A stretch of DNA of 64,000 nt, from NCBI RefSeq assembly GCF_964355755.1, contig NC_092678.1:15030371-15094370 (forward strand). The letters are read 5' to 3'. Within the stretch, counting starts at the first letter, position 1. Each line of letters begins with the position of its first letter. Of this stretch, positions 14,235 to 64,000 are shown piece by piece. The position numbers and the translations under genes were made by a program. The notes beneath the pieces were generated by a model. It had not been told where the DNA came from, did not search any database, and saw nothing but the letters and a program-made list of their open reading frames with translations. This DNA comes from Antedon mediterranea. Its lineage: Eukaryota; Animalia; Echinodermata.

Positions 14235-14339
14235 AATGGATACACACCGATAACTATTTATCTGGAGCATGATGATGTTAAATTAGAGATATTGTACTGT
14301 CTGATAACCAATGGTGAATCACCAACATTACCAAAAGAG
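14235..14339 (+). CDS. Ankyrin exon A1 (35 aa, phase 0-0)
   Basis: cacag|NGYTPITIYLEHDDVKLEILYCLITNGESPTLPKE|gtaatt. Confidence 0.7.
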
Positions 14340-29300: not shown

Positions 29301-32300
29301 TCTAAAAGTAAGGCGCGATTTACCGAATTTTGCCCTTACGTAAATTTATATATAGATTGATTGAGTTATTTAGAATGACTTGCTGCAATAATTATTGAGT
29401 AGTAATTAAACAAGATCCTACAATTATTGTGAGATTGGTATATTGAGCAATGAAATTATTAATGGTTTAAATAGTTTTATGTGGACATGTCATTATAGAT
29501 TTGTTGAATTTAGAATAATGACAAAAAACAATGTTCACATTAACCTAAACTACACAATTATGATTTATTTTTTCTTTTCTTGGATTTTTCTTTACCTTTC
29601 ATTAACATTTCAAAATTAAGGAATGCACAGAAAATTTATATAATTCAGTCTTCGTCCACAACATAGGCACCAGCAAAACCTTTTATTTCAATATATTTGT
29701 GTATTATTTATCATAATCTAACTATAACTATTTGCTACAATAACCTGTTTGTATAAACTCCATGATCATAATTTCTTTATAGGACTGAAACACCCCACAG
29801 CATGAACAGTCATTTGAATTATAGTTGTTTTGTTTTTTCAAAAACACATAATCCAAATTATAGCAAATTGACTACGTCGCCCATGTGCCATGCATGTACA
29901 CTATATACTAGTACAAAAATGCCTTTCATTAAATGTTACTTTAAACTTAATTGGAAATACTGTTAAAAACAAAATAAATTTGTTAACATTAATTTTAAAT
30001 ACAATAACTTTATTGGGTGAATTAGTTCCCTTTGAAGAGACGTAGTTTATTATTGCCTGAGTTATAACCAGATTGAGGAAGCAGTTATTTTGTATGGAAT
30101 GGATTTTTTACTATTTAAATTAAATAGTATATAGTGTATGGTAATGATAGTTAATTATTATCGGGCTTATCATATCTTTTTTACTTTTTTTAAGTCAAAA
30201 AAGGCGTACAATTAGTTTGGTAAATTATGTGTATTTATCTGTTTTTACCCCATTTAAAAATGTAATGTTTTGGTGTGATGTAACTTACAACAATGGCATC
30301 AAAATATTTAATAATGATACGAATGAATTATGACAGGAAGAACACGCCGCGGAATTTTCAAACGTTTCTATTCCAGTACGAATACTACTTATAACTAGAA
30401 AGTCACTCCAAAAGTGCATACATCCGCCTACTGTAAAATTCTCCTCCTCGTCGTCGTCAAAGCAAACTCTTGATCAGAGCGTGGCTTCTCTAACAGCATT
30501 CTGAAACCGTCTCCTGTCCTCTGTCATCCTACTTGCTTGCTCCATAGAGCCAAACACATCTGTTATATTATTTTCCCATTTGCATCTTGGTCCTCCTCTT
30601 CTTCTCTTCCCTGGAATTTAAGCCTCCAACACTCTCTTCTCCATTCCATCTTGCCGCTTAATGTTGCCAAAATTCTCCTACATAAGATTTCTCCGGGAAA
30701 AAAAATATATTTTTATATTTGTGTGTGTCTTAATGCTGTTTGTGATTTAGGCTAATTTCACTAAAAACATGTGTATGCGCGTTTAGTGTAATGGTTATGT
30801 AACACGCGTTTCAATTAACAATAGCTTCAGTTGACTAACAATAGAACAGCAACGCGAAAATCAAACGAGTGAATTTGAAAACAAATTGGTTTCTTAAACT
30901 ACTGGCATCAACAGGTGTACATTAAATCAAATTATGTTTTAAAATTACAAATCACAAAAAAAACCATTGCGTCTTGTACAAAAATGAAGTTTGTACAATT
31001 TCAGTTTACTTGTTACTTTATTTATATTAAAATTTTGTACTTTCTTTTAACACTAGAAGGTCTGAAAAGTATATTAAAATGTGGTCCAGAATTACGACCA
31101 TGGTCCCAAATGGTTCCAATATAATGGAATGGTCCTTGACCACATATATATCTGTACATTTATTTTGGTAAAGATCTTGTTACTTTTTACTTTTTGAGTA
31201 GTCCTGTTAACAAACAAACGCGATCGATTACATATACCTCCTTGGCGGAGGTAAATTACAACCTAACTATCTCATACTATTGCATCTTGCAAAAAACTCA
31301 ACTTCTCCTTAACACAATACAGTACTAATTTTTGAATAATTTCCAATAATATGGTACTGATGTTTTTTACGTTTAATAATCCTTTTATAATACACTGGCC
31401 TCAAATGTTTATAATTCTATCTTATTTAGAAACAAATGTAAGTAAACTTACCAATTCGATCATTATCAAACAATTTGAAAACATTCGAAAGCACATACAT
31501 TTGTCTTGGCTATACTAAAAGTAGCTTCCCAGATGACTACATCATCATGGGAATCACTCCAGAATCATCAACTTTAACCAGAATTGCGAAAATAACACAT
31601 CTGACGTGTATGATGCATAGAGTGGGCTGAAATTGTTTAGTACGCGAATGACCTACATATTTAATTTACTTTTATGTTTATAGGAAGGAAAAACAGCAGT
31701 ATCTATTTTAGAAGAAAATACGCAAATAGAACAAACGAAACAAATGATGATTTTAGAGTATTTTGACAGTAAGTTAAAAATATTATATTAAATTATTAGA
31801 ACTCGTCACTTTGACGAGTTCGAGTTATCCGTGGACACGCCACATCCACATACGTTAAACAATATAAACGTCGACAAATATTATGCCATCCTATGACATG
31901 AATTATGTTATATGTTTAGAGTGTTGAATGGTACCTATATCATTAAGGTATTATAACACTATTTACAAAATACACTGTATATGTTATATACAGTGTAGCA
32001 TATATGAAAGTTTTAACATGATTGCGTCATCAAACAACATGAAATACGTAGATAGCAATTTTTGAAGGAAATTATCATAGCAAAAGCATAACAACGTGTT
32101 GAAGAAAGTTGGATACGTAGAATATTGAAGCGCACTCTTTTAAATGTCACGAACTATGACGCAAAATATGAAAATACGACTTTTATAATTCAACCATATG
32201 ACCATATGGCCATATGATGACGTCACACTATCCGATGGACATAATTTGTACATGAATTCGTATCTACAATTCAACTGCTTCCAGAAAAACTTTTGATCAT

Positions 32301-35300
32301 GAGGAGTTATAACATATTGCAATTTATTGGAATGTTGAAAATAAATGACCAAAGTTATTCCCGCTTTTGCACATGCTGACGTCATCCCAATTTTTAAAAT
32401 GGTAAAAGATGCGAAAGATAATTGATTGACCTACATAATATACAATTATGGGGGGAAATGGAATACGGATAAGTGGAGATGCGCTCTTTTAAATGTGATG
32501 AGCTATGGCAAAAGTGGGTTGCCCCCACAAAAGAGAGAAAAAAAAGCTATGACGAAAGAGACAAACATTCTATATTTTATATTCGAGTGGCCATACGATG
32601 ACGTCACAATGTCATGTTAGCCATATTGATACATTATTCGATATCTAAAACTTATCAACTTCCAGAATATGTAATTTGTTTAGAATCTAGGGCTGTTTAA
32701 AAAAAAGCATAATTTTGACACATTTTTTAACTTTTTCATCAAAAACGCGCGCAAATTGTCCAATTCGACGTGCTCGTATGACGTGATTTTAAGTCGAATT
32801 TTTTTTTAAGTTGGTAAAATTACTAGAAAAGGCTGGAAAAACATAAATCACACGAAAAAAGATGTTTTTAGGGAACACATTTGGACGCACGTGGAAATTT
32901 TAGACATGCCTAAAATTACATGAAACGCGTAGAAATATGATTAGAAATTGATTTTTTGCATTTCAAATTTGTAAACGCGTGTACGCTCGTAACTTTTTGT
33001 GGAAAATGCCATTTTTAACTAAGTAAACTAAATTAAAGTTGATTAAACTTTAAAGCGAAATGTTCTCGATATTAGCAATACACATTTGAATTTTAAAAAC
33101 AAATGTAATTCATACATTACATTTTACATATAACCATGAATGCGAAAATCGAAATAATACCTGTATGTTATGCGTATTTTTAATTATTTAAAATCAGAAC
33201 TGCTAGTTCCTCCAGAAATATTTGCCATGGGTAAAGAGGCTATTAAGATATATAAAGATGAATTGAAAGATGGTAAAATTGCAGTTGTGAATTCAAGATG
33301 TATGTTTCTTGGGAAGGAAGGCGCTGGTAAGACAAGCTGCGTAAAGTCCATGCTTAGAGAGAGGTAAAAAAAAATACAATTGGTACAAATATGTGTTAAC
33401 ATAAGCTAATATTATTAGGCCTAATCAATTATTTCAACGTAAATGCATACGGGTAATATGTTGACTATTGGTTGCCTCTCTTGGATTTGTATAATCTAAA
33501 TCTTTTTAAAATTGATTTGTATCAGCTAGTTTGATAATTTCACTTTGTTAAACTTAAATGCTGGATGTAATGGATTAAAAATATTTAAGGAATTTTGTTT
33601 CAACTTCAACGTACATGTTTACAATAGATTCAACCCCAAAGAACCATCGACAGATGGTATAGTTACAGCTACCGTGTTTAAAGCAACTGGAGAGAGTAAA
33701 TGGAAGAATATTAAAGTTGAAAACGGTAAAGATAATTTGATTACCAAAACTGTAAATGTTTGTGTTACTTTCTTTATAATCTATATCTATATTACTTTAA
33801 CATTGATAAACTCTGTATCAGGAATAGACACCGCGTTGTGTGAAGGCTTAAATGACTGACATCACATAGTAATAGGCATGATATATGTTAAAATTAACTC
33901 CGTCTTTCTGATAAACTTTAAACAACATCTTTGCATACAATCTTCATTTTTTACCAATTAGTTTATTTGTACAGATTCTGAGCTAACCAAGAAAATGCGT
34001 GAAAATGCATTAGCAAAAAAAGTTGACAAAGAGTTAAAACAGGGTATGTACAGCAACAATAATGGAAGCTTGTTAACATTTGAATGTATTCACCTTTCAT
34101 TTATCAATTATGATAAACGAAACTGTAGATTAATGATTGGATATTAAGGAATAAAACCTAGACGATAGTATAAAAATGGTGAACTTTAACAGTTTTATTT
34201 AGGATTACCAAAAGGTAAAAAAAACCACATGATTAATATCAATTTAAAATCATGACATTAAAAAAACGTGACATTAAAATTAAAAAACAAGACATAAAAA
34301 AAAAATAGAAATGAAAAGTACTGGCAATAGTAAATCATAGGATAGTATTTAAAAAAAACTTGACATAATATAAAGAGGGTAAAATAGATTCACACTGATG
34401 GGTAATGTTTCTCGAAACATGTATGTAGGTGTCTACAACCAAATATGATACCTCCTCCCCCCCCCCCAAACAAAAATGTCTATCTAATTAACATTTAATG
34501 AAAAGAAGCATTCCTGAAAAACTGGACAGCGATCAAATTCTTTTTGTTTACATGTGTTTTTGTTTATCCTGCAGTAGATAGCAATGAAAACCGGAGCCTC
34601 TGGAACAAATTCGAAGATTTTATAAGAAGTAAAATAGGAAGTGATGATTCAGAGAATATTCCAAATGAAATAACTAGCATATGGGACTACGCTGGTCAAT
34701 TGGACTACTACATAACGCATAGGGTGTGCTTATCAATATGTTAATTATTAATATAAGTAGTATTATTAAAGTATGTAAATAGGATGTACATTGCATTTGA
34801 CATTATCCCTAAAATTAATAGGCAGGCGTAATATCGATATTACCGTTACCGTAATTGTATATTCCATACAAACGTATTAAATTGAAAAATTATTTGCGGT
34901 GATGGCTATCTATATTAACATTTTCTGCGGTAACGTAAACATCCCCTTATAGTTTCAGTATGAATAATTCTTCATTATTATATTATATCGTGTGCCAACA
35001 CAAGCTTAATGACAAACACATGTACATTTTATGACATCTTTTTAACTATTTAACAATGCTGTTATAATATTGCGTTACGTAAATCTTGCTGTCCGTATCT
35101 TTCACAACGTACTTGCGTTTTTTGCACTGCAATAAAACGAATATAGCTAGCATTATCTTTTTAACATTACATAAGATAACATTTACCAATCAACCATTTA
35201 TATATTTATCATTAATACATTTGAGGTATATTCTAATTATTATTTTGGCAATTGGAGCATTTTTCATTTAATTGTTGTAAACATAATCGGACCGTCCATA

Positions 35301-38300
35301 GGTGCCAAATAGTTCATAGACCACCATGCACATACCATAAAAAAGATTCTGTTTTAGTAAACATTTCAAATTAAAAGTGAATTTGAAACAACCTACATGT
35401 GTATAGCGTTAGTATTATTACCCACAAGTTGTCCTCCATACAGGTAGAGAATGCTCCAGCCGCCAAAATGATGTTCCAAAAAGTGTTATATACATCAATT
35501 ACAATGTGTTTTGTTTTCAGTTTTTCCTCACAAATACAGCATCGTACTGCATTGCGTTTAGTGCTTTGGATAAATTAGACGAACTAGCTAAAGGACGAGA
35601 TCCAGCATTGGTAAGTTCACCAAGTACTGTACGTAATATTATGCTCATTTTATCAAAATCTAATATTAGAATATTGTTTATAATTGACGTTGACTATATA
35701 AAATAATACAGTATAATTTTATCCTTTTAAAATCTATATTACATTTCATTTTAGGGTCCGTTAGGAATGACTAATTTGGACATAATTCTGTTCTGGGTAA
35801 GGTCAGTATATGAACATACTGTGGTACAACATGCTTCAGGAAACACCATTTCAATTGATGGCAAAGTGATAAAGTCGCCTCCCATCAGTTTGGTTGCTAC
35901 TCATATAGACAAATTGCCAGGGACAAAATCAGAAAAGCTGAAAGAGGTAATAGCCACAATAAATTAATGAAATATAAAGATTTATGAATATATATTGATT
36001 ACTTCGGTCTATTAGTTTATAACAGTGTTTTACTGAAGTATTAGTATGTAAAAACATAATTAATATAATATGAAGAGCAATGGTCATAACGTTGAGTATT
36101 ACAAGATACACAGATAAGATGTAAAATAGAATAAATATTACACTATTATCAAAAATAATATTCCTGGTTTTTTTTTTTTGGGAGAATTACAAATGTTGTA
36201 TACATTTATGAGTTCTTAGAAATCATCAATATAACTGTTATGCGTTTGGATAACGGTTTCCCAAGAAAATGGAAATAATCAGCACACATCTATCACATAG
36301 TGGGTGAGTGGCCGAGCGGTTAAGACAGTGGAACCGTAATCACGTAGCCATAACATCGGCAGAGGTTCGAGGCTTACTCACTCCATGGTTCTGGTGGTAG
36401 AACGAGTCTTCTCGGATAAGGACTATAAACGTAGGTCCAGTGTACACAACTTGCTCGTGTGCACTTTAAAGAACCTAGTACATCTTTCGAGACGAGTAGG
36501 GGGTTACCCCGGTGTATTAGTACATCACAGCCACTGATCACCAACTGGGCCCTCTGGGAGACCAGTCTTTGACTGAAGAGGTAACCCAGTATAAATATAT
36601 ATTTCAATCAATCATCAATAGAAATAATAATATCAGAAGAGTGTAATTAAGTTTTGATCAGTGCCGGAATTAGTGCTTCAACAATCAACAACGTGTATAA
36701 TGATAAAGATAAGATAATTATATGTGTTTAAATGAATGTTTTGTGTTGCATGCTATGCACCAAAATGTCAACAGTTTTTTGACACTAAGATACGTCTGAA
36801 ACAATAATACACATACATCAAATATACATTGCAATCAACATCACATCCGAGAAAAATAGCCCTATAGAATATAAACTATGTAAGAGGGTGTAGGCGGGAG
36901 GGTAGATTGAATGTCTTTCTTACAAAATGTGGATGTCTGAACCTCGTGGCGACCAAATTGAAGAGGTTAAAATTACGCCCTCTCTAGTTTCAAAATAGAA
37001 TTGTGTTCGACTGACACTATTCTTATTTTTATTTGCCGAATTTGCTCTTATGCATCAAAGTGTTCTTAGACTCATCAACTTTATACATTTCAAGTTAAGC
37101 CAACAATGTTTTCTTTAGCTTGATTAGTGTGTGTCCGAAAATATTTCTTTCTCACAAAGTGTTTCAATTCAATCGTAGTAATGAACCAGTAGATGCTTAT
37201 TCAAAATGAATCGTGCACGATACCCCGTAACCGTATTATACTGTATTCGCACACCACAACCAAACGGTTGCATTAAGATAAATTTAGAGTTTATTTTAAT
37301 ATTGATACGACCGTGGTTGTAGGCATAGTGTGTATCAACATAGGACATACCACGTAATATCAGTTATCTAGCTTCGTATCATCTGGACAGCTATGCATAT
37401 ATTGTACATGTACAAACGATTTCCTAATTAAAAATAGTACTCCACTGAAACAACATTAAACATTGAATCTTATAAATTTGATAGACTTTAGCAATAGGCA
37501 TAGTTGGCAACATTAAACACACATTGCAATATATTAAATTAAAATTATTAATTTTTTATAAACGTAAACTGTAACAATATTAATACATGTACTGTCATTT
37601 TTTGAAGGTTCAGAATATGTATAAGACCATTTTTGCTAAAATGGAAAGAATGGAATATGCCGAGCATGTAGATCGTGAAATGTACATGGTCAACAACACG
37701 GTGAAATCACACGAAGGTATTGAGAAACTTAAGAGGAACGTTGTTAGATACATGAATGTAATAGGGGCGAAGGTCATTCCTCTAAAGTGGCTTGATTTTC
37801 AGGAAAGATTGCAAGAAATTGGAAAAACAAGACTATGCATTTCATTTAATGAGGTAAATTTTGATTGTGCTTTCGTAACAGCAGTACCCGTGTCGTGTTC
37901 ATACAATTGTCACGTGTATGTGTGCAAAGTATTTAATAGTAGTTAGGTACGCCTAATCTGAGCTTTACAAAAAAAAGCGATAATAATATCCAAAGATACT
38001 GGAATTGAGTGTCGGTTCTTTTAATCTTCCATTTCCCTCTTGTTGGTGAGTTCATTGTTATGCAAATCACGTGTTCGCGAGTGCTCGAGATAATCCGACT
38101 CAGAGACTGCGTCGCGATATCAAGTTTGTTAGATGGTAGTGTGTGGTAGTGGCTTACTAATACCTTCAGTATTTGAGAGATTCGCATTCCTCTAAAAGAA
38201 ACTGTAGAAAAAACAATGTAGTTTTAGTATGATATTTTTTGTGTGTTCTGATTTACAATTTATTTAAAAAAAGGGATTTTTAACAAGTGATTGTTTACTT

Positions 38301-41300
38301 ATGTTATAGGCTTCCAAATACACTCCTTAAATTGTATCACATTTGAAAACAAAATCTCTACCGCATTAATGATATTGTATCACATATCAAATTAATAGCT
38401 AAATATGTAGGTTTGTGTCTGCATGTATTAATTTTTAATTCAATTCTTTTAATTTGAAAAAAATACACTACGTATTCATTTTATTCAATATTATTATTAT
38501 ATATTTATGCCCAATTTCGTTTCGCTTAAGCTCATTGCCGATGTTGGTCACCGCGTCACCGAGCGTCATTATAACATACAATAATTATATTAACGTAAAA
38601 CATTTACGGCACCATAATAACACAATAAACTATTCATTGTTTTTGCGAAAAAAAGATTAAAATAATATACAAATAATATATCATACACTTACAATGCTGT
38701 TACCATTAAACAGATTATATGTGACAACCGAATATCCACGAATCATCATCATACATCCAAATACAGAAATTGATACAATATGAGCCGTATAAAAAAATAT
38801 AAACTAATTAACTAACTAATGCTTAAATCAATATAATCTAATGATTATGTTAAAATAAGCCTTGTGGGTTATTATTATTATTATTATAATATCACTAATT
38901 GTCTAACTTAATTTAATTAGTAAACAAGGTTACATCAGGTGGTTAAAATCAGTACCGAAAGTACGAACCAACTTTATATACCATCGAGTAAAAATTCTAA
39001 AAGTAAGGCGTGATTTACCGAATAATTTTGCCCTTACGTAAATGTATATATAGATAATGAATACAATTGTAGTTTGTTATCACAATGTTTATATTTACTT
39101 ATTCGTCAATATAATAGTAAAAAATCGTTTTATTAAAATGTACATTTGTATTAGGCTTCTCGAATTTGCACTGAATGTGGAATTGCCGAAGAAGCGATCA
39201 TCGTTGCCATAAGGTATATGAATGACATTGGAAAGATTATGTATTCCAATAAAGACGAGAAATTAAAGAAGACAGTAATAACTAATCTCCACACGATGAT
39301 ACAGATGTTGACAATTGTAATCACAGTATTTCCACCACATATTGAAGATGTAAGTAGACAAATCATAATAATTATCATAGTATTAGAATGAGAAAAAAAA
39401 TACATAAAATGTAATTTCTATTTTGCTGACAACTGGAGTCTTCAATTGTGAAGCAATTTGTAGTAATTATTGTGTATACTTACTTACTTATTTGTAAATA
39501 GAAGAAAATGAAGACGCTATGGAAAAGACTTGACGAAGAAGGTATTCTTGAGGAAAAGTTACTACGTTATTTGTGGACAACTCAAACCCAAGATCACTTC
39601 GAAATCTTCATTGAAGTGATGAGGGTGTTTCGGTTGCTCTATGAGAAGAAGAGTGTAAGTATTATGTGCATCAATTGATAATTATAAGATATTATTCTCT
39701 CTCATCAATATTGTGTAATCACCAATGTTTATAATAACAGGTACAAGAAGGTAACCGTGAATTCTTGGTTCCATGTCAGATGAAAGTTTATACAAATACT
39801 AGTCTAGAAGTGACAAAAGATGACATGCAGATGGTATCCATTTACCTGACTCCGAAAGACTTTCTTCCTGAGGCTGTGTACCACACTTTAGTTGTTGCAT
39901 TTCTTGAATTGATGACGGGTACAGATAGTGATGATTCACAAGTGTTCCGGAATCGTAGTGATTTTGAATTTAAAGATCACAAAGTCAGTTTAGGTGCCGT
40001 ACAAATTAAGCGTGAAAATGAAAAACCACACGCAATTAAGGTAGGACAATAAAAGTTAAATATCTCACTATTTTTGTAGCATATACATAAATACTAGATC
40101 AATAGAATATATGGTCTATTTATTACTTATGGTATCGTATATGATTGCATAACGCATCTTGCACTACGCACCTATACCTACCAACTTAACATATCTATTA
40201 TAGTAATGTTTACAATAACACAAATCAACCAACAAAATTATCAAATGATGTTTACACATCTTTAATAAAAAAAAAGAAAAGATTGATCAACAAACATTTA
40301 CTTTTTTTTATTACTTAATAGCTTCAAATATATCGTAGGAAAGAACAGAGTTATGACACAGAAGTTGGTGGCGCCAAACCAAAGAAACGACAACTGCAAC
40401 CGAGTGTTTGTATGAAGGTAATTATTATTATGCGTGACATAAACACTTCCAAACAAAATGTAGTGTAAATTAAATGATTTAATTTTTAATTATTTAATTA
40501 AATATTTTACACCCCTTCCATGTGTTCAGGTACTAAGTTACTTGAAGGATCAACTACAAACCGTATGCAACATATACGAAGGTAGTGGTTACAAACTACG
40601 TGTGGTATGCGATGCTTGTAATCCAAAGGAACATCACTTAGTTGACCTTGAAAAGTGTTTGAAGAATGATGTAGTTCCATGTGGAACCGATACGTCTATG
40701 AATACAGCTCATATCAAGCGATATTTTTCTAAAGGTAAGTTTTTTCTGTTTATGTTCCTTGTCAATTTAATTACTTCATCTTAATTAAATCTCCATCCTT
40801 TTCATCATCTTTATTCGTCATTACCAATGATATATATCAACAAATAACGTTTGGAACTTAAGAGTCTTAGCAAAAGAGTCTATAGCTATATTGCTATTGA
40901 TTACAACTTCTTCACTTGGGTCCGTGAGAGCTAATCTGTCACTAAACATTTGTAAGCAGTTAGATAATTGAAATAATAATACTAAATTTATTGAAATCCA
41001 ATATACAATACAAAATTACAATTAATTACTATACAATAATTATTCACACATTTTAAATTAATATTGGTAAATTGTCTTAACTAACTCTTAACTATGTAAT
41101 AAAACTAAGCAAAATTCAGCGATTTCTACAAAACAAATGTTGAGTGGACTGTTAGGAATGAACCTCTTATATTTTTAAGAAAATAAAAGACACATTGCTT
41201 CTAATTTTCTTATTTTTGGGTAAAATCACTGATTAACAATAAATCGAGAGATGAAAAAATCCTCTGCCATCCAATCTGGCTCTTGAAAATAGAGTCTGCT

Positions 41301-44105
41301 CCGGTTGATTACTATATAGTCCAGTATTAAACAGCACACGCATTTTACTTGTCTTGCTGCCAATGTAAATGCCATGTTTGTTTCTGAACATGACTTGATA
41401 CGGCGTAATATCATTTTACTACAATAATTCATGTTAATTTTATTATTATTTATTTATTATTATATGTTAATTTATTGAAACATACAGTAATTTATATTAT
41501 TATTTTTTCTCGTTTCTATTACAAATAATACTAACCATGTATCTATAATATTTGTGGGCACATATAATATACTAGCAGTAGTGTAAACTAGCTTGGAAAG
41601 TTTTAATTTCATTATTTTACCAAAATACATTTCTTTTTTCCCAAGCTTTTAACACCTTTTTTAATTTGTTGATCTTCTCACCTCAATTATTTTTGTGGCA
41701 TTTCTTGTTATTGTAATCAAACAAAGTACCAAATAATGTACAGGGTCATCAACTCACTGTATTCTAAATGATTCACAAAACATAATGTTTTGAAGATCCA
41801 CAATCATTTGATTTTCATTTTGGTTGAAAGTATGTATATGTTTCAAGAAATTAAAAACGAGGAATAAAATTAACATGAATTACTGTAGTAAAATGATATT
41901 ACGCCGTATCATGTCATGTTCAGAAACATGAATGGAATTTACATTTGCGACGACCCAGGGCACTTAAAAAGTAACGGAAAAAATGTAATGGAAGGGTAGT
42001 AGTAGACAAGTAAATGCAGGTTCTGTTTATTGTCCCTTGTCATATAGGCCTACTGGACAATATAGTAATCAACAGGAGCAGATACTCTATTAGAAGAGCC
42101 AGATTGCGTTATACAAGCACCAATTTATGTTAATCAGTGATTTTAAGGAACATAAACAAACAAAAAAACCTTACAAAACCAGTCTACTTCATTTAAATAA
42201 GTTTCAATATTTTTTTTTATCTCCAACCGAAAGTATCTTATCGTCAGCTAACTTAGCAATTTAATCTCCTGTAGTTTCTATCCAAATTTAGATTTAACTA
42301 AACATAATAATAGCTTGCCTGCTAGTAATAACAACTGTCTTAGTAAAGGTTTATGAGAGATAATCTGAAACAAACATTTTGTGTTTTTAAAAATTAAAAA
42401 TAATATGTATAATTAATATTATGCTAAGCCAAAAAATAAATCTGAAATATTAGCTATACACGCGTTGATAATAGTAAAGGTGTAGTCGAATGAAAGAAAT
42501 ACAAGTAATTGCTAAATGATGGTATTATTACATAATTTACCGACCCGTTTTATATTCATGAAATTTGCTAATATACCTAAAATCTAGATGTTTGTAATGG
42601 ACCATATGTATATCATATTATCATTTTTGTTTTTTTTTTTCTTTCTACGTTTGTGTTAATTTTACTATTGGAGTTCTATATGTTTTAAAGCATATTTTGG
42701 AAAATGGCGTTAATTTCTAAATTGTTGTGTGTTAATGTTTACGTTTTTCGTGCGTTGATTTTACGAGTTGCGTTGTGGCCCTACATACTCTCACCTTATA
42801 AACATACATATTGTTTTACTAATAGAACTCTACATATTATAAAGCTTATTTTGTTAGAAAACTGTTTTACGAATTGAGTTTTTTTCAATTTTTTTTACTT
42901 TTGCATTGATTTTACGATTTATAAATAAATATTATGTATTGTTTTTCTGATATTGATTTTTGACAATATGAATTGTATTTGTTACAGGTGTTGTTGGAGC
43001 ATCAAGTTCATATCCAGGTATGTTAAGTTCTGTCTACACTATCAAACTTTATGTGACAAAAAAAAAGTGATGTGCCCATATATGGACCATATTTAAGCAT
43101 ATCGCTACCCTCTTTCGGAACATCACACTTTTTTTGTCAAACTAGTTTGATAGTGTAGACAGAGGTTTAGGTTTGTTGGTTGTAGTGGTTTAGATTAGTG
43201 GATATTAATTACAATGCACTACAGTCGAACTCACTGTCGCTCATTGATAGAACAGAGAACTGTAAATATGAGTGAAGTGAATTTTACGTTTAACAATTGA
43301 TAACATTCGGTGCCATGTTTAAAACATTTATATAAAGTAACCTCTCATTTGTATACTTGTTAGGCCATGGAAACGAAATTGATGGTTATGATAATGAAAG
43401 AATGATCTAGAGTCACATAAAAGTATGCACAATAATAAATGTTCACTATAAAGTGTACAGTGTACAAGGATACTGAGTGGTGTTTCATTACTTTATATTA
43501 TAATCACAATCTTATAGCAAATGACAACAGTGATTATAATCATGTTAACCTATTATGCTGAATTGATTACATATTGTAAAATTGCTTTATTTAACCATGT
43601 AGATCTTTCGGAAGATGAGTTTAAACAGTTAATTACAGAATTTGCACAATGGTATGATGAACGTGGACTCCTTAACAGACTGAAAGTTCTGTTCAAAGAA
43701 ATGCTAGGCGACTTTGAAGCGTTGAATAGAGTTACCAGTACATTCGACCTGTTAGCACTGTTAACTGATTCTGGGCTGTTGAGTCGACAAAAAATGTCTG
43801 TACTGTATGATACAATACAGATAACTAAACAAAATGGCTTTGAGGACATGGTTAAAAATAAGCTTCCTTTTTTCCAAAGTTTTAAGACCCAAACTACATT
43901 GTCATTTTCACCACATACCATAAATCTGTTTAATCTGGGAAAAAGTCTCAGTGACTTAGATATGAAAACTCTTGATGGACGTTTCAACTTCCCTGTTCTT
44001 AAGAAGTATGACGACAGGTGGAGTTTGATTTTGGATTTGGAATCACGAGGGTTGCTAAGTGAAGATAAACTTGAATCAGTTGAGAAGGACGTTTTGAAAA
44101 GATGA
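14235..44105 (+). CDS. Gene 1: ankyrin repeat - Roc - COR - tandem DED ROCO protein (spliced, 5' end not seen)
   Basis: GT-AG exons in consistent phase. ANK exons: 14235-14339, 14581-14691, 15758-15859, 16096-16206, 26323-26427, 26916-27020, 27215-27319, 27703-27807. Then 31684-31768, 33198-33363, 33628-33725, 33975-34043, 34575-34723, 35521-35610, 35755-35946, 37608-37853, 39155-39349, 39502-39654, 39741-40040, 40322-40417, 40530-40734, 42988-43017, 43603-44105; these last 15 exons total 2577 nt and stay open to TGA. Confidence 0.85.
14581..14691 (+). CDS. Ankyrin exon B1 (37 aa, phase 0-0)
   Basis: tttttag|EGINALHIHLSDRYVKPTLEIVTNLINLGVSPTLQNK|gtaaag. Confidence 0.75.
15758..15859 (+). CDS. 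Ankyrin exon A2 (34 aa, phase 0-0)
   Basis: cacag|NGYTPINIYLERDDVKLEILYCLITNGESPTLPK|gtaatt. Confidence 0.7.
16096..16206 (+). CDS. Ankyrin exon B2 (37 aa, phase 0-0)
   Basis: tttag|EGSNALHIHLSGRYVKPTLRIVTTLIKLCVSPTLQNK|gtaaag. Confidence 0.7.
16514..16830 (-). mobile_element. tRNA-derived CORE-like SINE
   Basis: Reverse strand reads GGAGCACTGTGGTGCAGTGG...GGTTCAAGCC...CCTTGAGCAAG...ATAAATGGGTACC; absent from the paralogous site at ~14990; imperfect TSD aagtgc..tacgta. Confidence 0.8.
17216..17445. repeat. 76-bp subterminal tandem repeat x3
   Basis: Unit starts at 17216, 17292 and 17368 (cgtttagatt.taaa.gcatagcttgtaccc...). Confidence 0.9.
19151..20587 (-). mobile_element. Non-autonomous Helitron, copy 1
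   Basis: Reverse strand A|TC...hairpin GATGGTACGCGAGCGAAGCGAGCGTACCATC-TAG|T; no TSD; highly similar to copies at 27914 and 58416. Confidence 0.9.
20806..24711. mobile_element. Non-autonomous TIR element with TTAA TSD (Kolobok-like)
   Basis: TTAA|GAGCCATTGTCTGTAA...TTACAGACAATGGCTC|TTAA; imperfect inverted homology extends ~500 bp inward. Confidence 0.8.
22443..22973. mobile_element. pogo/Tigger-like MITE
   Basis: TA|CAG...GGGAGGTTCAACTG|TA with repeated AAGCGGCCAC motifs; left TIR partly deleted. Confidence 0.6.
26323..26427 (+). CDS. Ankyrin exon C1 (acceptor disrupted by transposon)
   Basis: DGNTPLHEYLRSNKPTLEIVDYLRKQGASITAQNK|gtacag; AG intact, but the native pyrimidine tract is displaced 9.1 kb upstream. 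Confidence 0.65.
26916..27020 (+). CDS. Ankyrin exon C2
   Basis: gaaag|DGNTPLHEYMRSNEPILEVVDYLTKQGASVTALNK|gtaata. Confidence 0.8.
27215..27319 (+). CDS. Ankyrin exon C3
   Basis: ctatag|DGNTPLHEYMRSNEPTLEVVDYLTKQGASVTALNK|gtaatt. Confidence 0.85.
27703..27807 (+). CDS. Ankyrin exon C4
   Basis: ctatag|DGNTPLHEYMRSNKPTLEVVNYLRKQGASITAQNK|gtgata. Confidence 0.85.
27914..29356 (-). mobile_element. Non-autonomous Helitron, copy 2
   Basis: TC/CTAG ends, A|T target; the paralogous intron at ~26530 is an empty site. Confidence 0.9.
29783..29806 (+). pseudogene. Truncated ankyrin pseudo-exon C5
   Basis: tttatag|GAC TGA AAC ACC CCA CAG CAT GAA: stop at codon 2, then homology breaks off. Confidence 0.8.
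30395..31253. mobile_element. Helentron-associated (HINE/DINE-like) element with nested RTE-like LINE 3' fragment (~30443-30680, minus)
   Basis: Absent from the paralogous intron at ~27540; terminal palindrome TACCTCCTTGGCGGAGGTA and a related CATACATCCGCC near the other end; nested PGKRRRGGPRCKWENNI...EDRRRF. Confidence 0.6.
31684..31768 (+). CDS. Ankyrin C-cap/linker exon of gene 1
   Basis: ttatag|EGKTAVSILEENTQIEQTKQMMILEYFD|gtaagt, phase 0-1. Confidence 0.8.
33198..37853 (+). CDS. Roc GTPase domain exons of gene 1 (running into the start of COR)
   Basis: PPEI..MG..AI..Y pre-Roc motif; G1 GKEGAGKTS; G2 PSTDGI; G3 WDYAGQ..YYITH; G4 LVATHIDK; then IPLKWL at the COR start. Confidence 0.92.
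36299..36615 (+). mobile_element. tRNA-derived SINE with Deu/Nin-like domain (intronic)
   Basis: A box TGGCCGAGCGG, B box GGTTCGAGGC; TCGGATAAGGACTATAAACGTAGGTCC...TTAAAGAACC...GAGTAGGGGG..CCCCGGTGT. Confidence 0.75.
38904..39054 (-). mobile_element. Helitron 5'-end fragment (same family)
   Basis: Matches 29207-29356 including the A|TC terminus. Confidence 0.85.
39155..40734 (+). CDS. COR and post-COR exons of gene 1
   Basis: AIRYMNDIGKIMY..TVITN, EEGILEEKLLRYLW, FLVPCQM, FLPEAVYHTLVV; ends in Cys/His-rich VCDAC..HHLVDL..C..PCG. Confidence 0.85.
41222..42145. mobile_element. MITE-like element with ~220-bp imperfect inverted repeats
   Basis: 41222-41445 is the inverse of ~41863-42145 (aaaatcactgattaac.../...gttaatcagtgatttt). 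Confidence 0.7.
42988..43017 (+). CDS. 30-nt linker micro-exon (phase 1-1)
   Basis: ttacag|(G)VVGASSSYP|gtatgt. Confidence 0.65.
43026..43166. mobile_element. 141-bp Harbinger/Tourist-type MITE
   Basis: TIR CTGTCTACACTATCAAACT, TTA TSD (43023-25, 43167-69). Confidence 0.8.
43603..44105 (+). CDS. Terminal exon of gene 1: two divergent death-effector-domain (DED)-like units
   Basis: FKQLITEFA...LKVLF...TFDLLALL..SGLLS...VLYDTI, then FSPH..NLFNLGKSLSDLDMKTL...WSLILDLESRGLLSE; DED-like helical pattern. Confidence 0.75.
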
Positions 44106-46903: not shown

Positions 46904-47207
46904 ACGATCAATACAGTCGTCTATCCTCGGTATGGGATATGAATCTGTAGTAGATTTGGCATTAACCTTCCGATAATCAGTACAAAAGCGATACGATTTA
47001 TCTGGCTTCGGAACTAATATACATGGAGAACTCCAAGCACTGCAACTAGGCTCGTGTAATCAATCTCATTTTGTAATATCTTCATCTTGAACGGATTTGC
47101 TCTATATGGATTTTGTTTTATTGGTGAACAATCAGCTGTCTTAACGTCATGCTCCACTAAGTTCGTTCGACCTGGAACATCCGAAAACAACTGCAGATTT
47201 CCAAATA

Positions 47208-49047: not shown

Positions 49048-49077
49048 ACTTGCTCCAGCAGAAGACTCGTTTGAAAA

Positions 49078-56350: not shown

Positions 56351-57790
56351 ACATTTAATAAAAAAAATCCCTGCAAACGCAACATGCACGTACGTTAGTA
56401 TGATAGTAAATTGTTGCCATGCTATGATCTGAAGCATAATTTGCTTATAGTGCTGAATTGTGCCTATTATTGTGTTATATAATAATACAGTTAAGAGTAT
56501 GTTGCACATAAAAAGAGTGGCTTTTTTTAATTTTAAGTTGCTACATAACATTTTACCAACTAGGTGTAAGCTAAAATTATGAAATTTGTCAAACAGTAAA
56601 TATTGTAATGAGGAGGTTGAAAATGAAAAACATATGTTATTTACATGCAAAGAAGTAAAACATTGCTGGGTAAAATGTTGCGCTATGCTGAAAACATGTT
56701 TTGCATTTACTCAGGAAGTTACATTGGAGAAAATTGTACTTGGAAAATAAGATGTCAAAATTACTGAAATATTTTCCAATTTAACTTTCTGTGTTTATAA
56801 AAGTAAAGTCAAACATAGACTAGGACTTGTCAAAAAATGTCCATGGTTAATGTTCACTGTGGAGTTAGAAGGTATAATCAATTGTGAGTTTTTAATAAAT
56901 AAAGAAAAGGCAAAAAAAATGTGGTCAGATATGGACCGTAACAATTTAGCAAGGTATAAAATTAACGTTTATAAAATTGATATTTAGGTAAAGTAAAATA
57001 TAACTTTTTTTTTTGATTGCCTGAAAGAGATAAAAAGAATTATAAAATAAAGAATTATGTGGTAAATTATACGTACATTGTTAAGGATTGAAAAACGTGT
57101 AAAGTGTGTATAACATAGAGGAAAATGTTTTTTTTCCTCTTTCCTTATACTATTATATATAAAATGTAATGGTAGGAGTGAGATATCAGATGTAGTGAAA
57201 GTTATTTAATGTCAATTATAGTGTATTGTATCATTACATTACTCTTGTGCAATGCATTGTAAACGAACATTTTATTGATGAAGAAATAAAAGTGGGTTGA
57301 TTCTACATAAGACAAACAAAAAACAACATTTACATTTACAGTTTTTGACGCAATATTCTCCAAAAAACCGTAATTATTAATTTTCGAACTTTTTTTTGTG
57401 AGAAATTAAAAGTCTTCATTTGAAGAAACTTTCTGTGATACTTTTCATAAATCATATTACACAATAGTCTTAATAATCTTTTTGTATAGATCGAGCTTAA
57501 TTTCTTCTTGTTCTGTTTTATTGTGCACGTAGGGTTCTTGTCCTGTATCCAACAGAAAGTCACGTGCTCTTAATGAGCAATGTTTGTATTGTACTTCAAA
57601 TGTTTTTGACAACTGAATATTAATACTAGTGTTCACTAATAGTATTGCTGTATACATATTATATATTAATGTTGTATCAAAACTTGTATTGTAATAATAA
57701 TATTTAATTCGATTAATAATATCATCTTCAGATAATCAAATCAAACTAAACCAGCAAAGAGCTTTATGAAGACTAAGTATAGTACTTAAG

Positions 57791-60700
57791 ATGTCGAGGT
57801 GAGTTGTAAAGTTGAAGAGTTACAATACTATACGAACACGGCTACGAAAAACATAAATGCTATCATTTTTTTTAATTATTGATGTAACTCATTCTATATT
57901 TCATATTTGACCATTACAGATTACAAGATGCTTTTAAGATGAATGACTTGCAACAAATTAAAGAAATATGTCAGAAAAATCCAGATCTTTTGAAAAACAA
58001 AGATGAGGTAAAACAAAAGATAGACTTTCCATATTATTACTAATAAGAAAGTATAGTAATTCATTTAGTTCCAAGAAGATCATACATTTATGTAAATTGT
58101 AAAGTGTAATCATTATACCTATATTCAAATATAATGAATACTGTTTAATATCCTGGATCAATAACATATGCTTTAGTGACGAATGCTGCAAATTAAATAA
58201 ATAAATAAATTTAGTGACATTATTTATCGGTACTTACTGTTAATGTTTGTCTTAAATTATGAGATCGATGTGTACGGTTACTGTAGAGGGTTGGCCGATT
58301 AGTTAGACGGTCAGAATGACAGTTTCAAGTCAAGAGCCATTTTTTTGTATGTGAAATAATTATAATAATTAAGTTCATCCAAATCCAATCTAGTAAAACT
58401 TTTTCGAAATCATTATCTATATATAAATTTACGTAAGGGAAAAATTCGGTAAATCGCGCGTTATTTCTAGAATGTTTACTCGATGGTATATAAAGTTGGT
58501 TCGTACATTCGGTACTGATTTTAACCGCCTGATGTAACCCTGTTTACTAATTAAATTGAGTTCGATAATTAGTTATTGACGATTAAAACGAATTTAGGTT
58601 CAACGATTTGCCCCAAATAGGGGTGTTTTTCGATCGTGGTATACACTGTCTAATGGATGTCCGTCTTGAAAAATACCCGCAGACGATAATACGAGGATGC
58701 TTCGCATTTTCCTATCTTCTCCTACGATAATTGTTTTTAATGGCTGAAAACCGGTTGAACAGCTCGAGTACAGCATCATAATGTTGAAGACAGGCCGATT
58801 TTCTTTAAAAAATACTATTTTGATAGATTTAATATACGTTTATACAAATGTATTGATTTGCGATGAATGGAACATTCCAATCTCTGTTCCACAAGTGTCT
58901 ATTCCCTCAGGCGTCGTAAAGGCAAGTACTGTATACTCATAACAGAAATTCGATCCATTTTTTTTTTCAATCTGTGCTGCAGAGGTTGGATATACATTTT
59001 TTTTAAACGGATAAAGAGCTAGCGTTTTCACTCGCCGTATATTATTTATAAATCTTTATTATTGCAGTTAAACCACCCACATCATCACCCTTCCCTCACT
59101 GGCATGAGTAGCGTTGTAAAACCAGTAAAGGATAGGCCTACGGTACATCACATGCCCTAAACGCAGAACAACTTTGGTGGGTAGGGTAGGAACCAACTTA
59201 AGTATGAATTGGCTCTAAGAAACAATTGAAAACCATTAGGCCTACTAATTAAGTTAAGTTAAATAATTTAATATTTATTGACGATTAAATCGAATTTATG
59301 ATTTTCCCGAATAGAGGTGGTTTTCACAAATTGTTTTACATTATATAAACATATACACGTCGTAGTGATGTATCGTTACATGTAGGGCCCACTGTACTAT
59401 TTCAATCGACTAGGACGGTGATAGTTTCAACAAAGTATTACATCGCAATGTTTTACTGTGTTTAGTGGTATATTATTTGTAAAACATGAAAACAATAATA
59501 ATAATAATAATAATAACTGGTACTTGATATAGCGCATTATGCTGAAAGCCTCAATGCGCTTTACAAAGACAGAACAATTTATAAATTTACAAATTAAAAA
59601 GTGGGTTTTGAGGAGAGATTTGAAGACACTGGTGGAAGTAGCCTGACGGATTTCAATAGGCAACGCATTCCATAGAGAAACGGATGCCAAAGAAAATGAA
59701 CGATTTCCATAAAACTTAGTGGAAGGATGAAATATATGGGCAAGAAGAGACTCGGATCTAGATCTCAGAGACCGCTTAGGAACATAAGGTTGAATAAGTT
59801 CAATTAATATTTCGTTACTAAATGGATAAAGAATAATATTAAAAAATTGTTCCTCTTTGCACCCATCCTCTTCCCCATATCCATCCCTCAACCCTAATGT
59901 TACATACAAAACACAAATTAAGTTTGTTTAAATTTGACTTAAACAATTGGTTTCTCTTTCGGAAGTAATTCACATGGTGCTAATTTTAGTTGAGTACATA
60001 AATCACAGTGTCTATTTATTCGTTCCTGTAGGCTGTAAACGACATGTATTATTGTCCTGCGGTACGTACATATGAAATCGCCAGTTTTTTAACGCTGAAA
60101 TTATTATGTATTCGAGAACCATCTGTGTCTGTGGGCACGACCTAGATGGTACGCGAGCGAAGCGAGCGTACCATCTAGTACAGATAATTCATAATGGTGA
60201 CCAGACTCACATGTCTTTGTCAATCGACAACAGCAACTTTGTATTCACTTTTTTCGCTTATCATTATAGTAATTATAATTATTTTTTACTTCAGGGTTGT
60301 AACATAGCTGTTTGTGAGTATAAATGTAACTGATTTTAGTCATCAAAACAGTATTTAATTTACAACAGTTGTTAATTATTATGTGACATGAATAAAAAAC
60401 ATGTGTGCATTACAGCTGTAATCTATATTTATAAACTACATGATTATGATTTCTTTCTAGCAAGGATACACTCCACTACATGACTATTTACTATGTGCCA
60501 ACTCTACAACAGAAATAGTGGATTATCTCATACGGCACGGCGCATCAGCAACGTCACAAACTATGGTAATGTACACAAAATCATAATGCCCATACGATTA
60601 CAGTAGGTCTTTATGTCGTTATTATTAAAACAGTAGGCCTATCTGTTCCAGCAAACATCTCATTTCATTTATAATTTGTCATTTATATTTAAATTAATTA

Positions 60701-63330
60701 TTTAGAATTATTTATTGCGAATTTTTGAAGCAGTTATGGAATGAAACAATAAACGAAGGCATGCAATAACCGACATTTGTTTATAGAAACAATAATACAT
60801 TGCATAAAGTCAATTATGACATCATTATAATCGATTGTCATTCACACATTTAATTACAATTATAGTAGTACTTCAATGTATCTGTCTAATTTGTTTAAGT
60901 TGGTTTAAATAATATAATAATCAACTCTTGAATACTTTTATTTGGGTTATATTTTATATAAAGGCGTAAATTTTCTTTTTTGATTCAATCAAGTTAGTTC
61001 GATAGTTATGTACGAAATAAAAAAGTACTTACTACGACGTTTTGCAAACCGGTTTTTAAGTAGACTGATTGTTAGTTGCGTTGACGTTGGTCAGTACGGC
61101 GTGTTATATGTGACAAGCCAGATGTGTTGTAAATAAAGTACAAATAAATTTAGGTGGTTTTTATTGTTTTGTACACTCAGAAGATGTTGTCATGACACTG
61201 TAGAATTTACAACCATTATCAATGTGGCATGACCGAAAAATATGATTGCATTACATCTGGAATTGATATTTACTACTACATGTTTATGATTTCTTTCTAG
61301 CTTGGATACACTCCACTACATGTGTATTTAGGATGTTCCAATCCTACAAAAGAAATAGTGGATTTTCTCATACAACACGGCGCACAAGTAACGTCACAAA
61401 ATAAGGTAACATACAATTTTAGGAGGTCTATTATGCAAGTTTTAATAAAACATTATCGGTTCAAGCAAACATCTCTATTTCATTTGTAATATGTAATTTA
61501 TAATTAATATTAATTATTTTGAATTATTTATTGAGAAGCAGTTATTGAATGAAGCAAGAAATTAAGACATGCCATAACCGACATATATTTTTAGAAACAA
61601 TACTACATTGCATAAAGTCAATTAATATTAATTCACACATTGTATTACAATTATAGTAGCACTTTAATTTATCTGTCTAGGTTGTTTAAGTTGGTTTATA
61701 TAATATAATAATCGACTCTTGAAATAATTTTATTTGGGTCCTATTTTATAAAGGCGTAGACAAGTAGACTGTTGCGTTGACGTTGGTCAGTACGGCATGC
61801 TATATGTAACAAGCTATGTGTGGTAAATAATGTACAAATTAATTTAACTGATTTTTATTGTTTTGTACATTCAGAAGATTTTGTCATAACAATGTACAAT
61901 TTACAACCATTATCAATGTGGCATGACCAAAATATACGATTGCATTACAGCTGGAATTGATATTTATAAACTACATGATTATGATTTCTTTCTAGCTTGG
62001 ACACACTCCACTACATGTGAATTTACTATATGGCAATCCTACAACAGAAATAGTGGATTGTCTCATACAACACGGCGCAGATGTATCGTCACAAAATGAG
62101 GTAACATACAATTTTAGGAGGTCTATTATGCCAGTATTAATAAACATTATCGGTTCAAGCAAACATCTCTATTCGATTCATGACGTCTCTTTTATAATTA
62201 TATGAATTACTTAGAAGTATGTATTACAAATTCAAAAACAATTATAAAATAAAAAATTAATTAATTAAAAACTGTATTATGCAGAAATGCCATGATCGAT
62301 ATGTGTTTGTAAAACAATTATAACTAAGTGCGTCTCGCCAATTATGACGTCATATAATCGATTGTCATTCACACATTTGTATTACAATTATAGTAGTTCT
62401 TCAATTTCTCTGTCTATTTTTTTTAAAGTTGGTTAGAATATAATTAATATTCTTGAATTAATTTCATTGGGTCTTAATTTAACATAAACAAAATATGAAT
62501 ACATTGCATGAATATGACTTCTTTCTAGTATGGAGACACTACACTACATAGGTATTTGTGATATTCTAACAGCAATAGTGACTTGTGTCACATAGTATGG
62601 TGCATCAGTAACATCACAACATGTAGTAATGTACATACAATCATAGTGGTATTTATGTCATTATTGTGAAAACAGTATCTGTTCCAGCAAATATCTCTAT
62701 TTCATTTATAATATGTAACTTATAATTAATATTAATTATTTTGAATTATTTATTGCGAATTTTAGAAGCAGTTATTGAATGAAGCAAGAAATGAAGACAT
62801 GCCATAACCGACATGTTTTTTTAGAAACAATATTACATTGCATAAAATCAATTAATATTTAATTCACACATTGTATTACAATTATAGTAGCACTTTAATT
62901 TATCTGTCTAGGTTGTTTAAGTTGGTTTATATTATATAATAATCGACTTTTGAAATAATTTTATTTGGGTCCTATTTTATAAAGGCGTAGACAAGTAGAC
63001 TGTTGCGTTGACGTTGGTCAGTACGGCATGCTATATGTAACAGGCTATGTATGGTAAATAATGTACAAATGAATTTAGCTGGTTTTTATTGTTTTGTACA
63101 CTCAGAAGATTTTGTCATAACAATGTAGAATTTATAACTATTATCAATGTGACATGACCAAAATATACGATTGCATTACAGCTGGAATTAATATTTACTA
63201 CTACATGGTTATGATTTCCTTCTAGTCTGGATATACTCCACTACATTTGTATTTACTATGTGCCAACCATACAACAGAAATAGTGGATTGTCTCATACAA
63301 CACGGCGCAGAAGTAACGTTACGAAATAAG
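57791..63330 (+). CDS. Gene 2 (5' part): ankyrin-repeat protein related to gene 1, continues beyond the window
   Basis: ATGTCGAG|gtgagt 57791-57798; 57920-58007 (RLQDAFKMNDLQQIKEICQKNPDLLKNKDE); 105-nt ANK exons 60461-60565, 61301-61405, 61996-62100, 63226-63330; phases consistent. Confidence 0.85.
58416..60178 (+). mobile_element. Non-autonomous Helitron, copy 3 (with nested L2 fragment)
   Basis: A|TCTATATA...hairpin-CTAG|T. Confidence 0.9.
59495..59801 (-). mobile_element. 5'-truncated L2-type LINE 3' end
   Basis: PYVPKRSLRS...GNRSFS...LWNALP.EIR..TS..VFKSLLKTHF plus a (TTA)n tail; absent from the other Helitron copies. Confidence 0.85.
62529..62625 (+). pseudogene. Ankyrin pseudo-exon (97 nt, TGA at codon 11)
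   Basis: ttctag|YGDTTLHRYL*...|gtaatg; net 8 nt shorter than the 105-nt exons. Confidence 0.8.
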
Positions 63331-63773
63331 GTAACATACAATTTTAGGAGGTCTAATATGCCAGTATTAATTAAAACATTATCGGTTTAAGCAAACATCT
63401 CAATTCCATTTATGACGTCTCTTTTATAATAATATGAATTATTTAGAAGTAGGTATTGCAAATTCAAAAACAGTTATTAAATAAAAAAAATAAATTAATC
63501 AAAAACTATATTTTGCAGACATGCCATGATCGATATGTGTTTGGAAAAACAATTATTCCATAGTATAACTAAGTGCGTCTCGCCAATTATGACGTCATAT
63601 AATCGATTGTAATTCAAACATTTGTATTACAAGTATAGTAGTTCTTAAATTTATCTGTCTATTTTTTTAAGCTGGTTAGAATATAATTATTATTCTTGAA
63701 CTAATTTCATTGGGTCTTAATTTAACATAACAAAAAAATATGAATAAATTACATGAATATGACTTCTTTCTAG

Positions 63774-63870
63774 TATGGAGACACTACACTACATAGGTAT
63801 TTGCGATATTCTAACAGCAATAGTGACTTGTGTCACATAGTATGGCGCATCAGTAACATCACAACATGTA
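63774..63870 (+). pseudogene. Ankyrin pseudo-exon (97 nt, frameshifting)
   Basis: Duplicate of 62529-62625 with CGA instead of TGA; length is not a multiple of 3. Confidence 0.8.
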
Positions 63871-64000
63871 GTAATGTACATACAATCATAGTGGTATTTA
63901 TGTAATTATTATGAAAACAGTATCTGTTCCAGCTAACATCTCTATTTTATTTATAATATGTAATTTATAATTAATATTGATTATTTTGAATTATTTATTG

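Follow-up and report, generated by a model that had tools for sequence, protein, structure and literature searches.

Probable positive selection on the ankyrin binding face of a crinoid gene in tandem with a Roco GTPase gene

At the end of a 64-kb stretch of Antedon mediterranea DNA (64,000 nucleotides, here called the window), a gene with one exon per ankyrin repeat (gene 2) raises two questions: whether selection explains the differences among its repeats, and what kind of protein carries them. To our knowledge, neither ligand nor function has been established for most Roco proteins, and few descriptions exist of immunity in crinoids. Judging from the sequence, we consider it likely that the gene 2 binding-face codons changed faster than neutral under positive selection, and that what the gene encodes here is the sensing part of a Roco receptor with the ankyrin-ROC-COR-DED layout of its neighbor (gene 1). 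As amino-acid changes in the exons outpace the introns and lie mostly on the predicted binding face, the product of gene 2 is likely a sensor that diversifies rapidly; it is probably of the Roco GTPase type and may have an immune role.

Gene 2 is on the + strand. Its first coding piece is 8 nt long (57791..57798), with a putative ATG start and a phase-2 donor (GTGAGT) at 57799, and is in frame with the exon for an N-terminal capping repeat (57920..58007), which ends in phase 0. The following intron contains an interspersed repeat on the - strand (58411..60180), with more copies at 19140-20592 and 27903-29362 (84-93% identity by self-BLAST). Four live ankyrin exons, A (60461..60565), B (61301..61405), C (61996..62100) and E (63226..63330), are located where a preliminary description of the locus had placed them. 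Each is 105 nt with AG/GT borders, phase 0 and an open frame, encodes one ankyrin repeat, and passes the Pfam Ank PF00023 cut-off (25-33 bits vs 21.1). None has a stop or indel, 17 of the 35 codons are identical at the nucleotide level, and G.TPLH, EIVD.LI and HGA, reported earlier as constant in the protein, are invariant in nucleotides too. To this picture we add two frameshifted pseudo-exons of 97 nt within the array, both on the + strand: D (62529..62625), with an 8-nt deletion and an in-frame TGA but AG/GT kept, and F (63774..63870), which has the same deletion and differs from D at 2/97 positions. Splicing would have to skip both. No inverted ankyrin exon copies were found in the window; all are on the same strand. 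The window ends inside the gene 2 repeat array, and any gene 2 ROC would be located past that point.

The array has grown by duplication. A unit of about 1.23 kb comprising an intron, exon C, an intron and pseudo-exon D (61461..62755, + strand) has a second copy at 62684-64000, with 63 differences in 1187 non-coding positions. The sister exons are C and E (61996/63226), not the pairs 61301/61996 and 60461/63226 compared in the preliminary description. Exon A is chimeric: the flank before it and the larger part of the exon itself are C-type, and the intron after it is mostly D-type. The intron after B begins as the type found after C and, inside a block common to both types, turns into the one found after D. 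The junction, at 61462..61480, was placed from diagnostic columns and pairwise alignments. This junction points to unequal crossing-over. Such exchange between homologous intron blocks may gain, lose and recombine repeats while keeping the frame. Phase 0 is found in all four live gene 2 exons and in all eight ankyrin exons found in gene 1.

The preliminary description had proposed diversifying selection on a recognition surface from codon counts, and those counts are exact. Exons 61301 and 61996 differ at 10 codons, all 10 amino-acid-changing (13 nt, Sd 0), and 60461 and 63226 differ at 12, of which 11 change the amino acid. As evidence the raw counts do not suffice. They are weak because non-synonymous sites make up about three quarters of the total, and the best pair (13 N / 0 S, p = 0.023-0.030) is one of six. 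pN exceeds pS in every pair (pN 0.15-0.22, pS 0-0.15). The preliminary description had named the flanking introns for comparison, with relaxed selection as its caveat. Sisters C and E differ at 15/105 exon positions (13 non-synonymous) and at 63/1187 in their co-duplicated flanks (Fisher p 9e-4). By site class against the flanks, the non-synonymous sites are raised (p 6e-4) and the synonymous ones are not (2/25, p 0.39). The exon also outpaces the dead D/F pair (2/97), which is of similar base composition (p 0.002). GC/CpG composition accounts for part of the excess only, as a composition-aware expectation gives 7.7 differences vs the 15 observed (p 0.013); one non-exon 105-nt window reaches 12. 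A joint intron and codon model of C vs E gives an omega of 3.4 (p 7e-4), or 2.5 (p 0.012) when restricted to the nearest flanks, which are more diverged. Overall, omega is 2.4-3.4. For B vs E alone omega is 1.8 and not significant (p 0.12).

These comparisons bear on the reading that selection is relaxed or absent, with gene 2 decaying, or with the scaffold alone constrained and the rest drifting. The two dead exons in the array, the weakness of raw counts, a family-defined scaffold omega that is mostly not significantly below 1, and the lack of a protein matching gene 2 in our searches (best exon identity 65-68%) would all fit it. However, drift cannot outrun the intron rate as the exon does, and the intact frames and shared codons of the live exons contrast with D and F, in which the scaffold has changed. 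No simulation under neutral or scaffold-constrained nulls matched the observed value (0/301). Relaxed selection is thus largely refuted already, and we regard it as very unlikely.

A second reading accepts the divergence and attributes it, with no role for positive selection, to exon swapping or gene conversion: C/E introns were homogenised, or exons were overwritten by distant copies, inflating exon-versus-flank divergence. The chimeric flanks and the crossover junction show that exchange has occurred, and the view of donors is limited to the window. The divergence of D/F from A is 25% in the exon and 11.5% in the downstream intron, and a few C/E states recur, by eye, in A, B or D/F. Yet C/E synonymous divergence from the exon tree is in line with that of the flanks (0.058 vs 0.056), both sister lineages changed (C 7, E 8), and by eye about 12 of the 15 differences are states that, of the six copies, only C or only E has. 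A test using synonymous sites only and ignoring introns agrees with the intron-based result. We consider conversion alone unlikely.

The amino-acid excess is concentrated at six face positions. We fitted codon models with our own code rather than PAML to the four live exons (35 codons, about 3 synonymous changes), taking the six binding-face positions (face6) from an ankyrin-library paper. Face6 omega is well above 1 in every model tried (2.7-13), which supports the proposed diversifying selection; the surface may serve recognition. With synonymous sites as the sole clock, M0 omega is 3.1 (p 0.03), M1a vs M2a gives p 0.009, and face6 omega is 11 vs 2.4 for the rest (p 4e-4). With branches fixed from introns face6 omega is 4.6-7.0, and with the chimeric exon A left out it is 4.5-8.4. 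The observed statistic was reached in 0/150 all-neutral and 0/151 scaffold-constrained simulations. Allowing tandem double mutations lowers face6 omega to 2.7-6.0 (p <= 0.019) and leaves the signal in place; the flanks have no excess of such doubles (8/160 events). When long branches are assumed, whole-exon omega drops to 0.8-1.2 and is not significant. A scaffold set picked after seeing the data is significantly purifying (omega 0.17-0.26), a set defined from the family gives 0.37-0.82, and the 14 other codons give 1.6-2.5.

The preliminary description had set codons 22 and 29-35 outside the binding face. This holds for 22 and 29. Codons 33 and 35 belong to the face, as library-randomised positions 33 and 2, because the exon boundary cuts the beta-turn. 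These two off-face codons also score as selected (NEB 0.88-1.0). On the concave face, made up of the beta-turn, helix 1 and the loop after it, point changes may have been fixed by selection, and new binding specificities would then arise on a constant scaffold. The gene 1 repeat cluster is purifying (omega 0.32), with no positive class, and the selection regime is therefore gene-specific.

What protein carries this face? Gene 1 adjoins gene 2 in tandem on the same strand. Its ankyrin exons at 14235, 14581, 15758, 16096, 26323, 26916, 27215 and 27703 (14235..27807, + strand) served as a paralogous cassette and internal control. They are followed by C-cap, ROC GTPase, COR and DED-like exons (31684..44105, + strand), and 16 exons, starting with the one at 27703, join in frame up to a stop at 44105. 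This chain is colinear with P0393 (XP_071961256.1; Ank, Roc, COR-A, COR-B, DED), which passes Pfam Roc and COR-A, and gene 1 is intact as an ankyrin-ROC-COR-DED (Roco) gene. For a 24-nt intron-end motif there are 11 matches, all on the + strand and all in the ankyrin regions of genes 1 and 2 (shuffles give 0-2 each). Gene 2 shares this motif, the N-cap and the 35-aa repeat with the Antedon ANK-Roco family. In a blastp of the N-cap against 278 proteins the best four matches are family members P0123, P0125, P0155 and P0187 (E 2e-5 to 2e-4), with P0267 fifth (E 0.001). The ANK-ROC-COR-DED proteins P0393, P0125 and P0128 resemble gene 2 in N-cap, in variable positions and in a 35-37-residue repeat with an insertion between helices; none is gene 2 itself, and their database models are titled 'uncharacterized protein'. 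When the four gene 2 exons were used in a word-based search for homologs, generic ankyrins were all that came back. The gene 1 ROC exon retrieved the family, all 13 matches being from Antedon mediterranea.

DAPK1 and LRRK1/2 are animal Roco proteins with ankyrin repeats and ROC-COR, DAPK1 having a death-fold domain as well, and are conserved low-copy kinases. Unlike them, the Antedon family has no kinase domain in the five of five proteins scanned. Those five also lack a NACHT or NB-ARC ATPase, the mark of an NLR (the gene 2 C-terminus is outside the window). A ROC-COR and DED for gene 2 may be encoded downstream of the window; ligand binding might then switch the GTPase, and the DED might recruit a caspase or adaptor. 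It is also conceivable, if somewhat unlikely, that positive selection is real and the protein is neither Roco nor an immune sensor, for example ankyrin-only or ankyrin-DED in another arms race (gamete recognition, a transposon or viral antagonist, a self protein). The window stops before any C-terminal domain, and the family member P0293 bears gene 2-type repeats without a Roc match. Against this, the tandem same-strand neighbor is a full Roco gene with the intron-end motif in common, and two of the four best N-cap matches have ROC-COR, the other two being short fragments.

The Roco sensor reading has parallels elsewhere. As excerpted, two papers on Ectocarpus LRR-ROCO genes describe repeats that each occupy an exon of their own upstream of ROC-COR, introns with dead repeat exons, repeat-domain recombination and diversifying selection on the concave face, and propose immune receptors (PMC3341825, PMC11378527). 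Gene 2 likewise has one in-phase exon per repeat, dead copies in introns, recombination and face diversification, in a small sample. It is an analogue of these exon-shuffled receptors and not a member, since its repeats are ankyrins (35 aa) rather than LRRs (24 aa) and come from an animal whose family has a C-terminal DED-like domain. An animal Roco case would be convergent with brown algae. In Podospora, PNP_UDP/NACHT/ANK fungal NLRs, in the excerpted text, have near-identical ankyrin repeats, variation in repeat number and a positively selected face formed by the inner helix and beta-hairpin (PMC4986451), all of which recall gene 2; that text does not mention one exon for each repeat. They differ from the Antedon family in having a NACHT/NB-ARC switch and C-terminal repeats, where Antedon has N-terminal repeats and a Roco GTPase. 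The placozoan paper PMC6321704 does not mention Roco, and in the literature searched we found no report of an exon-per-repeat diversifying ankyrin array of this kind in animals.

A Roco family of this kind, expanded in one lineage and joining a positively selected, exon-modular ankyrin sensor to a death-effector tail, would make it possible to test in an animal whether a Roco GTPase acts as an NLR-like switch. We suggest tentatively, as possible rather than probable, that crinoids independently evolved a modular repertoire of natural DARPins: a multi-chromosome ankyrin-ROC-COR-DED family whose phase-0 exons are interchangeable and owe their diversity to positive selection together with unequal crossing-over and exon skipping, and in which recognition of pathogens or non-self leads to a death-effector output. 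The ligands might be fast-evolving pathogen or non-self proteins. If so, the repertoire would be an animal counterpart of the brown-algal ROCO arrays, with a GTPase replacing the NLR ATPase.

Designed ankyrin libraries (DARPins), as excerpted, keep a constant scaffold and vary positions 2, 3, 5, 10, 13 and 33 (PMC4308713, PMC9611651). All six vary in gene 2. The Antedon repeats are natural and differ in that helix 1 is followed by a variable loop of 2 or more residues (3-21 in the family as a whole); evolution here varies the positions that engineers randomise, plus a length-variable loop. A regex search of 17 other Antedon proteins, which misses variant-motif repeats, gave 49 repeats (none from P0133) and, after pairs with >12 differences were dropped, 29 within-protein repeat pairs. 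Face6 changed in 47/174 cells vs 85/752 elsewhere, the hottest positions were 1, 8, 11 and 12, and loop length differed in 13 of the 29. The predicted fold of the paralog P0155, which is not gene 2's own spliced product, has a pLDDT of 87 and a TM of about 0.8 to DARPins.

The window is animal DNA, rich in A and T, and has spliceosomal introns. In gene 2, the ankyrin gene whose repeat array lies at the end of the window, four live exons of 105 nt and phase 0 each encode one ankyrin repeat (A at 60461, B at 61301, C at 61996 and E at 63226). Two dead copies are also present: D (62529-62625), with an 8-nt deletion and an in-frame TGA, and F (63774-63870), with an 8-nt deletion. An N-cap exon and a short ATG exon are found 5' of the array. 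The codon differences counted in the preliminary description were exact on recount, and the feature is real. pN exceeds pS in all six pairs of live exons; the best pair gives p 0.023-0.030 but is one among six, and the pairwise excess alone is weak evidence.

C and E are sister exons, and the introns and dead exon co-duplicated with them serve as a control. Of the 105 nt in each exon, 15 differ between the two; 13 of these differences are non-synonymous and 2 synonymous. The co-duplicated flanks have 63 differences in 1187 nt, and D and F have 2 in 97. Comparison with flanking introns had been proposed earlier; on C and E, non-synonymous sites diverged above the flank rate (p 6e-4) and synonymous sites showed no excess (p 0.39). 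With base composition considered, 7.7 differences are expected versus the 15 observed (p 0.013). Omega (dN/dS) is 3.4 in a joint intron and codon model, 2.5 using the nearest flanks only, and 2.4-3.3 with distances fixed. Polarised by B as outgroup, seven changes fall on C and eight on E. As counter-evidence, one non-exon segment of 105 nt has 12 differences. The test on B and E taken alone was not significant.

To locate the changes we used the AlphaFold model of the paralog P0155 (pLDDT 87), in which helix 1 spans codons 5-12, the loop 13-16 and helix 2 17-25, and which matches DARPin structures at a TM of about 0.8. An ankyrin library, as outlined in its description, randomises positions 2, 3, 5, 10, 13 and 33, said to make up the binding surface (PMC4308713); through the model these correspond to codons 35, 1, 3, 8, 11 and 33. 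All six of these face codons vary in gene 2, compared to 11 of the remaining 29, the set being externally defined but picked once the data had been seen. Off-face codons 22 and 29 score high too. Codon 12 corresponds to position 14 in the classic DARPin library. Codons 1, 3, 8 and 11 lie on the binding face as first described, while 33 and 35, previously placed outside it, also belong to it. Among 29 within-protein repeat pairs from other family proteins, most change is at codons 1, 8, 11 and 12, which supports the location of the variation but does not by itself demonstrate selection. Loop length across these proteins ranges from 3 to 21 residues; the longest, in P0293, resembles an antibody-type loop.

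All codon models were custom-coded and cover 35 codons. When the synonymous sites within all four exons set the clock, M1a versus M2a gives p 0.009, and omega is 11 for the six face codons versus 2.4 elsewhere. Face omega is 4.6-7.0 with fixed intron-derived branch lengths, 4.5-8.4 without the chimeric A, and 2.7-6.0 with tandem double mutations permitted; in the flanks 8 of 160 events are multi-nucleotide, in line with chance adjacency. Whole-exon omega under long branches did not reach significance. Relaxed selection had been raised as an alternative; none of 150 all-neutral simulations attained the observed statistic, nor did any of 151 in which the scaffold was constrained. Positive selection on the gene 2 binding face is well supported given the small sample, and we consider it quite probable. 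The diversifying selection initially suggested agrees with a face omega of 2.7-13 across models, and the surface may serve in recognition.

The unit of about 1.23 kb with C and D occurs again as E and F. The intron 3' of B opens like the one 3' of C and changes, at about 61462-61480 within a common block, to the type following D. Exon A has C-type sequence upstream and a mostly D-type intron downstream. These junctions are traces expected from unequal crossing-over between homologous intron blocks, which probably produced them. As the repeat exons are all in phase 0, exon gain or loss leaves the reading frame intact. Repeats are probably gained, lost and recombined through unequal crossing-over, with positive selection on the concave face yielding new specificities on an unchanged scaffold. 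Repeat gain, loss and recombination with concave-face selection are reported for brown-algal LRR-ROCO genes (PMC3341825, PMC11378527), which, as far as those accounts go, resemble gene 2 in the process proposed but carry LRR repeats. The corresponding logic is outlined for ankyrins in fungal NLRs (PMC4986451), similar to gene 2 in both repeat type and proposed process. Our search of mainly open-access main texts found no paper on crinoid Roco and ankyrin and, among the papers listed, none on an animal ankyrin-Roco exon array; an earlier published account may exist.

The best matches of the gene 2 N-cap are to the Antedon ANK-Roco family. Eleven copies of a 24-nt intron-end motif lie in the window, all of them within the ankyrin regions of gene 2 and its same-strand neighbor, gene 1. 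Gene 2 is therefore assigned as a paralog of this family. Its Roco identity is likely, with ROC-COR predicted 3' of the window; P0293 has the same repeats and no ROC, so the repeats can exist without it. In another family protein, P0123, ROC-COR is present twice and the C-terminus includes a hydrophobic stretch. By architecture and analogy, gene 2 may encode a putative pathogen or non-self sensor with output via ROC-COR and DED; a role in immunity is plausible, with the balance about even. At 17023, 26704 and 29542 the motif has no ankyrin exon following, possibly scars of exon loss.

Gene 1 (14235-44105, + strand) is an ankyrin-ROC-COR-DED Roco gene. Its ROC exon (33200-33361) matches 13 proteins, all uncharacterized and from A. 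mediterranea. A 16-exon in-frame chain (27703 to 44105) is colinear with P0393 (XP_071961256.1), in which Ank, Roc and COR-A exceed the cut-off and COR-B and DED matches are weaker. Gene 1 is identical to neither P0393 nor P0121 and may therefore be another paralog or haplotype. Repeat number differs from P0393, the closest database model (four versus seven main-type repeats), and a two-exon unit is doubled in gene 1. The ROC exons are nearer P0121 than P0393, which suggests mosaic paralogs or haplotypes. Purifying selection acts on the main four-exon repeat cluster of gene 1 (26323-27807), where omega is 0.32 and no positive class emerges; gene 2, about 33 kb away, shows the opposite. Duplicate 111-nt exons (14581-14691 and 16096-16206) differ by seven non-synonymous and no synonymous changes; against flanks, omega is 1.5 and not significant. 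Decayed or partial copies of gene 1 ankyrin exons lie at 2289-3102, 12827-12876 and 29783-29810, the half-exon at 12827 coming after a transposon-like stretch with an open frame (11778-12323) lacking a Pfam match.

Between the two genes, 45494-50854 (- strand) is by its motifs what we take to be a gypsy-type LTR retrotransposon; its gag-pol frames are broken, and a pair of 120-nt direct repeats (97%) lies at 45494 and 50735. One interspersed element occurs three times (19140-20592, 27903-29362 and 58411-60180; 84-93% alike), always intronic in ankyrin regions. Upstream of gene 2, an old non-coding unit of about 1.5 kb is repeated three times in tandem (52433-56356, about 72% identity). A DDE_Tnp_4 transposase fragment lies at 429-839 (- strand), and 4831-6687 (+ strand) is presumably a LINE-like endonuclease/RT fragment.
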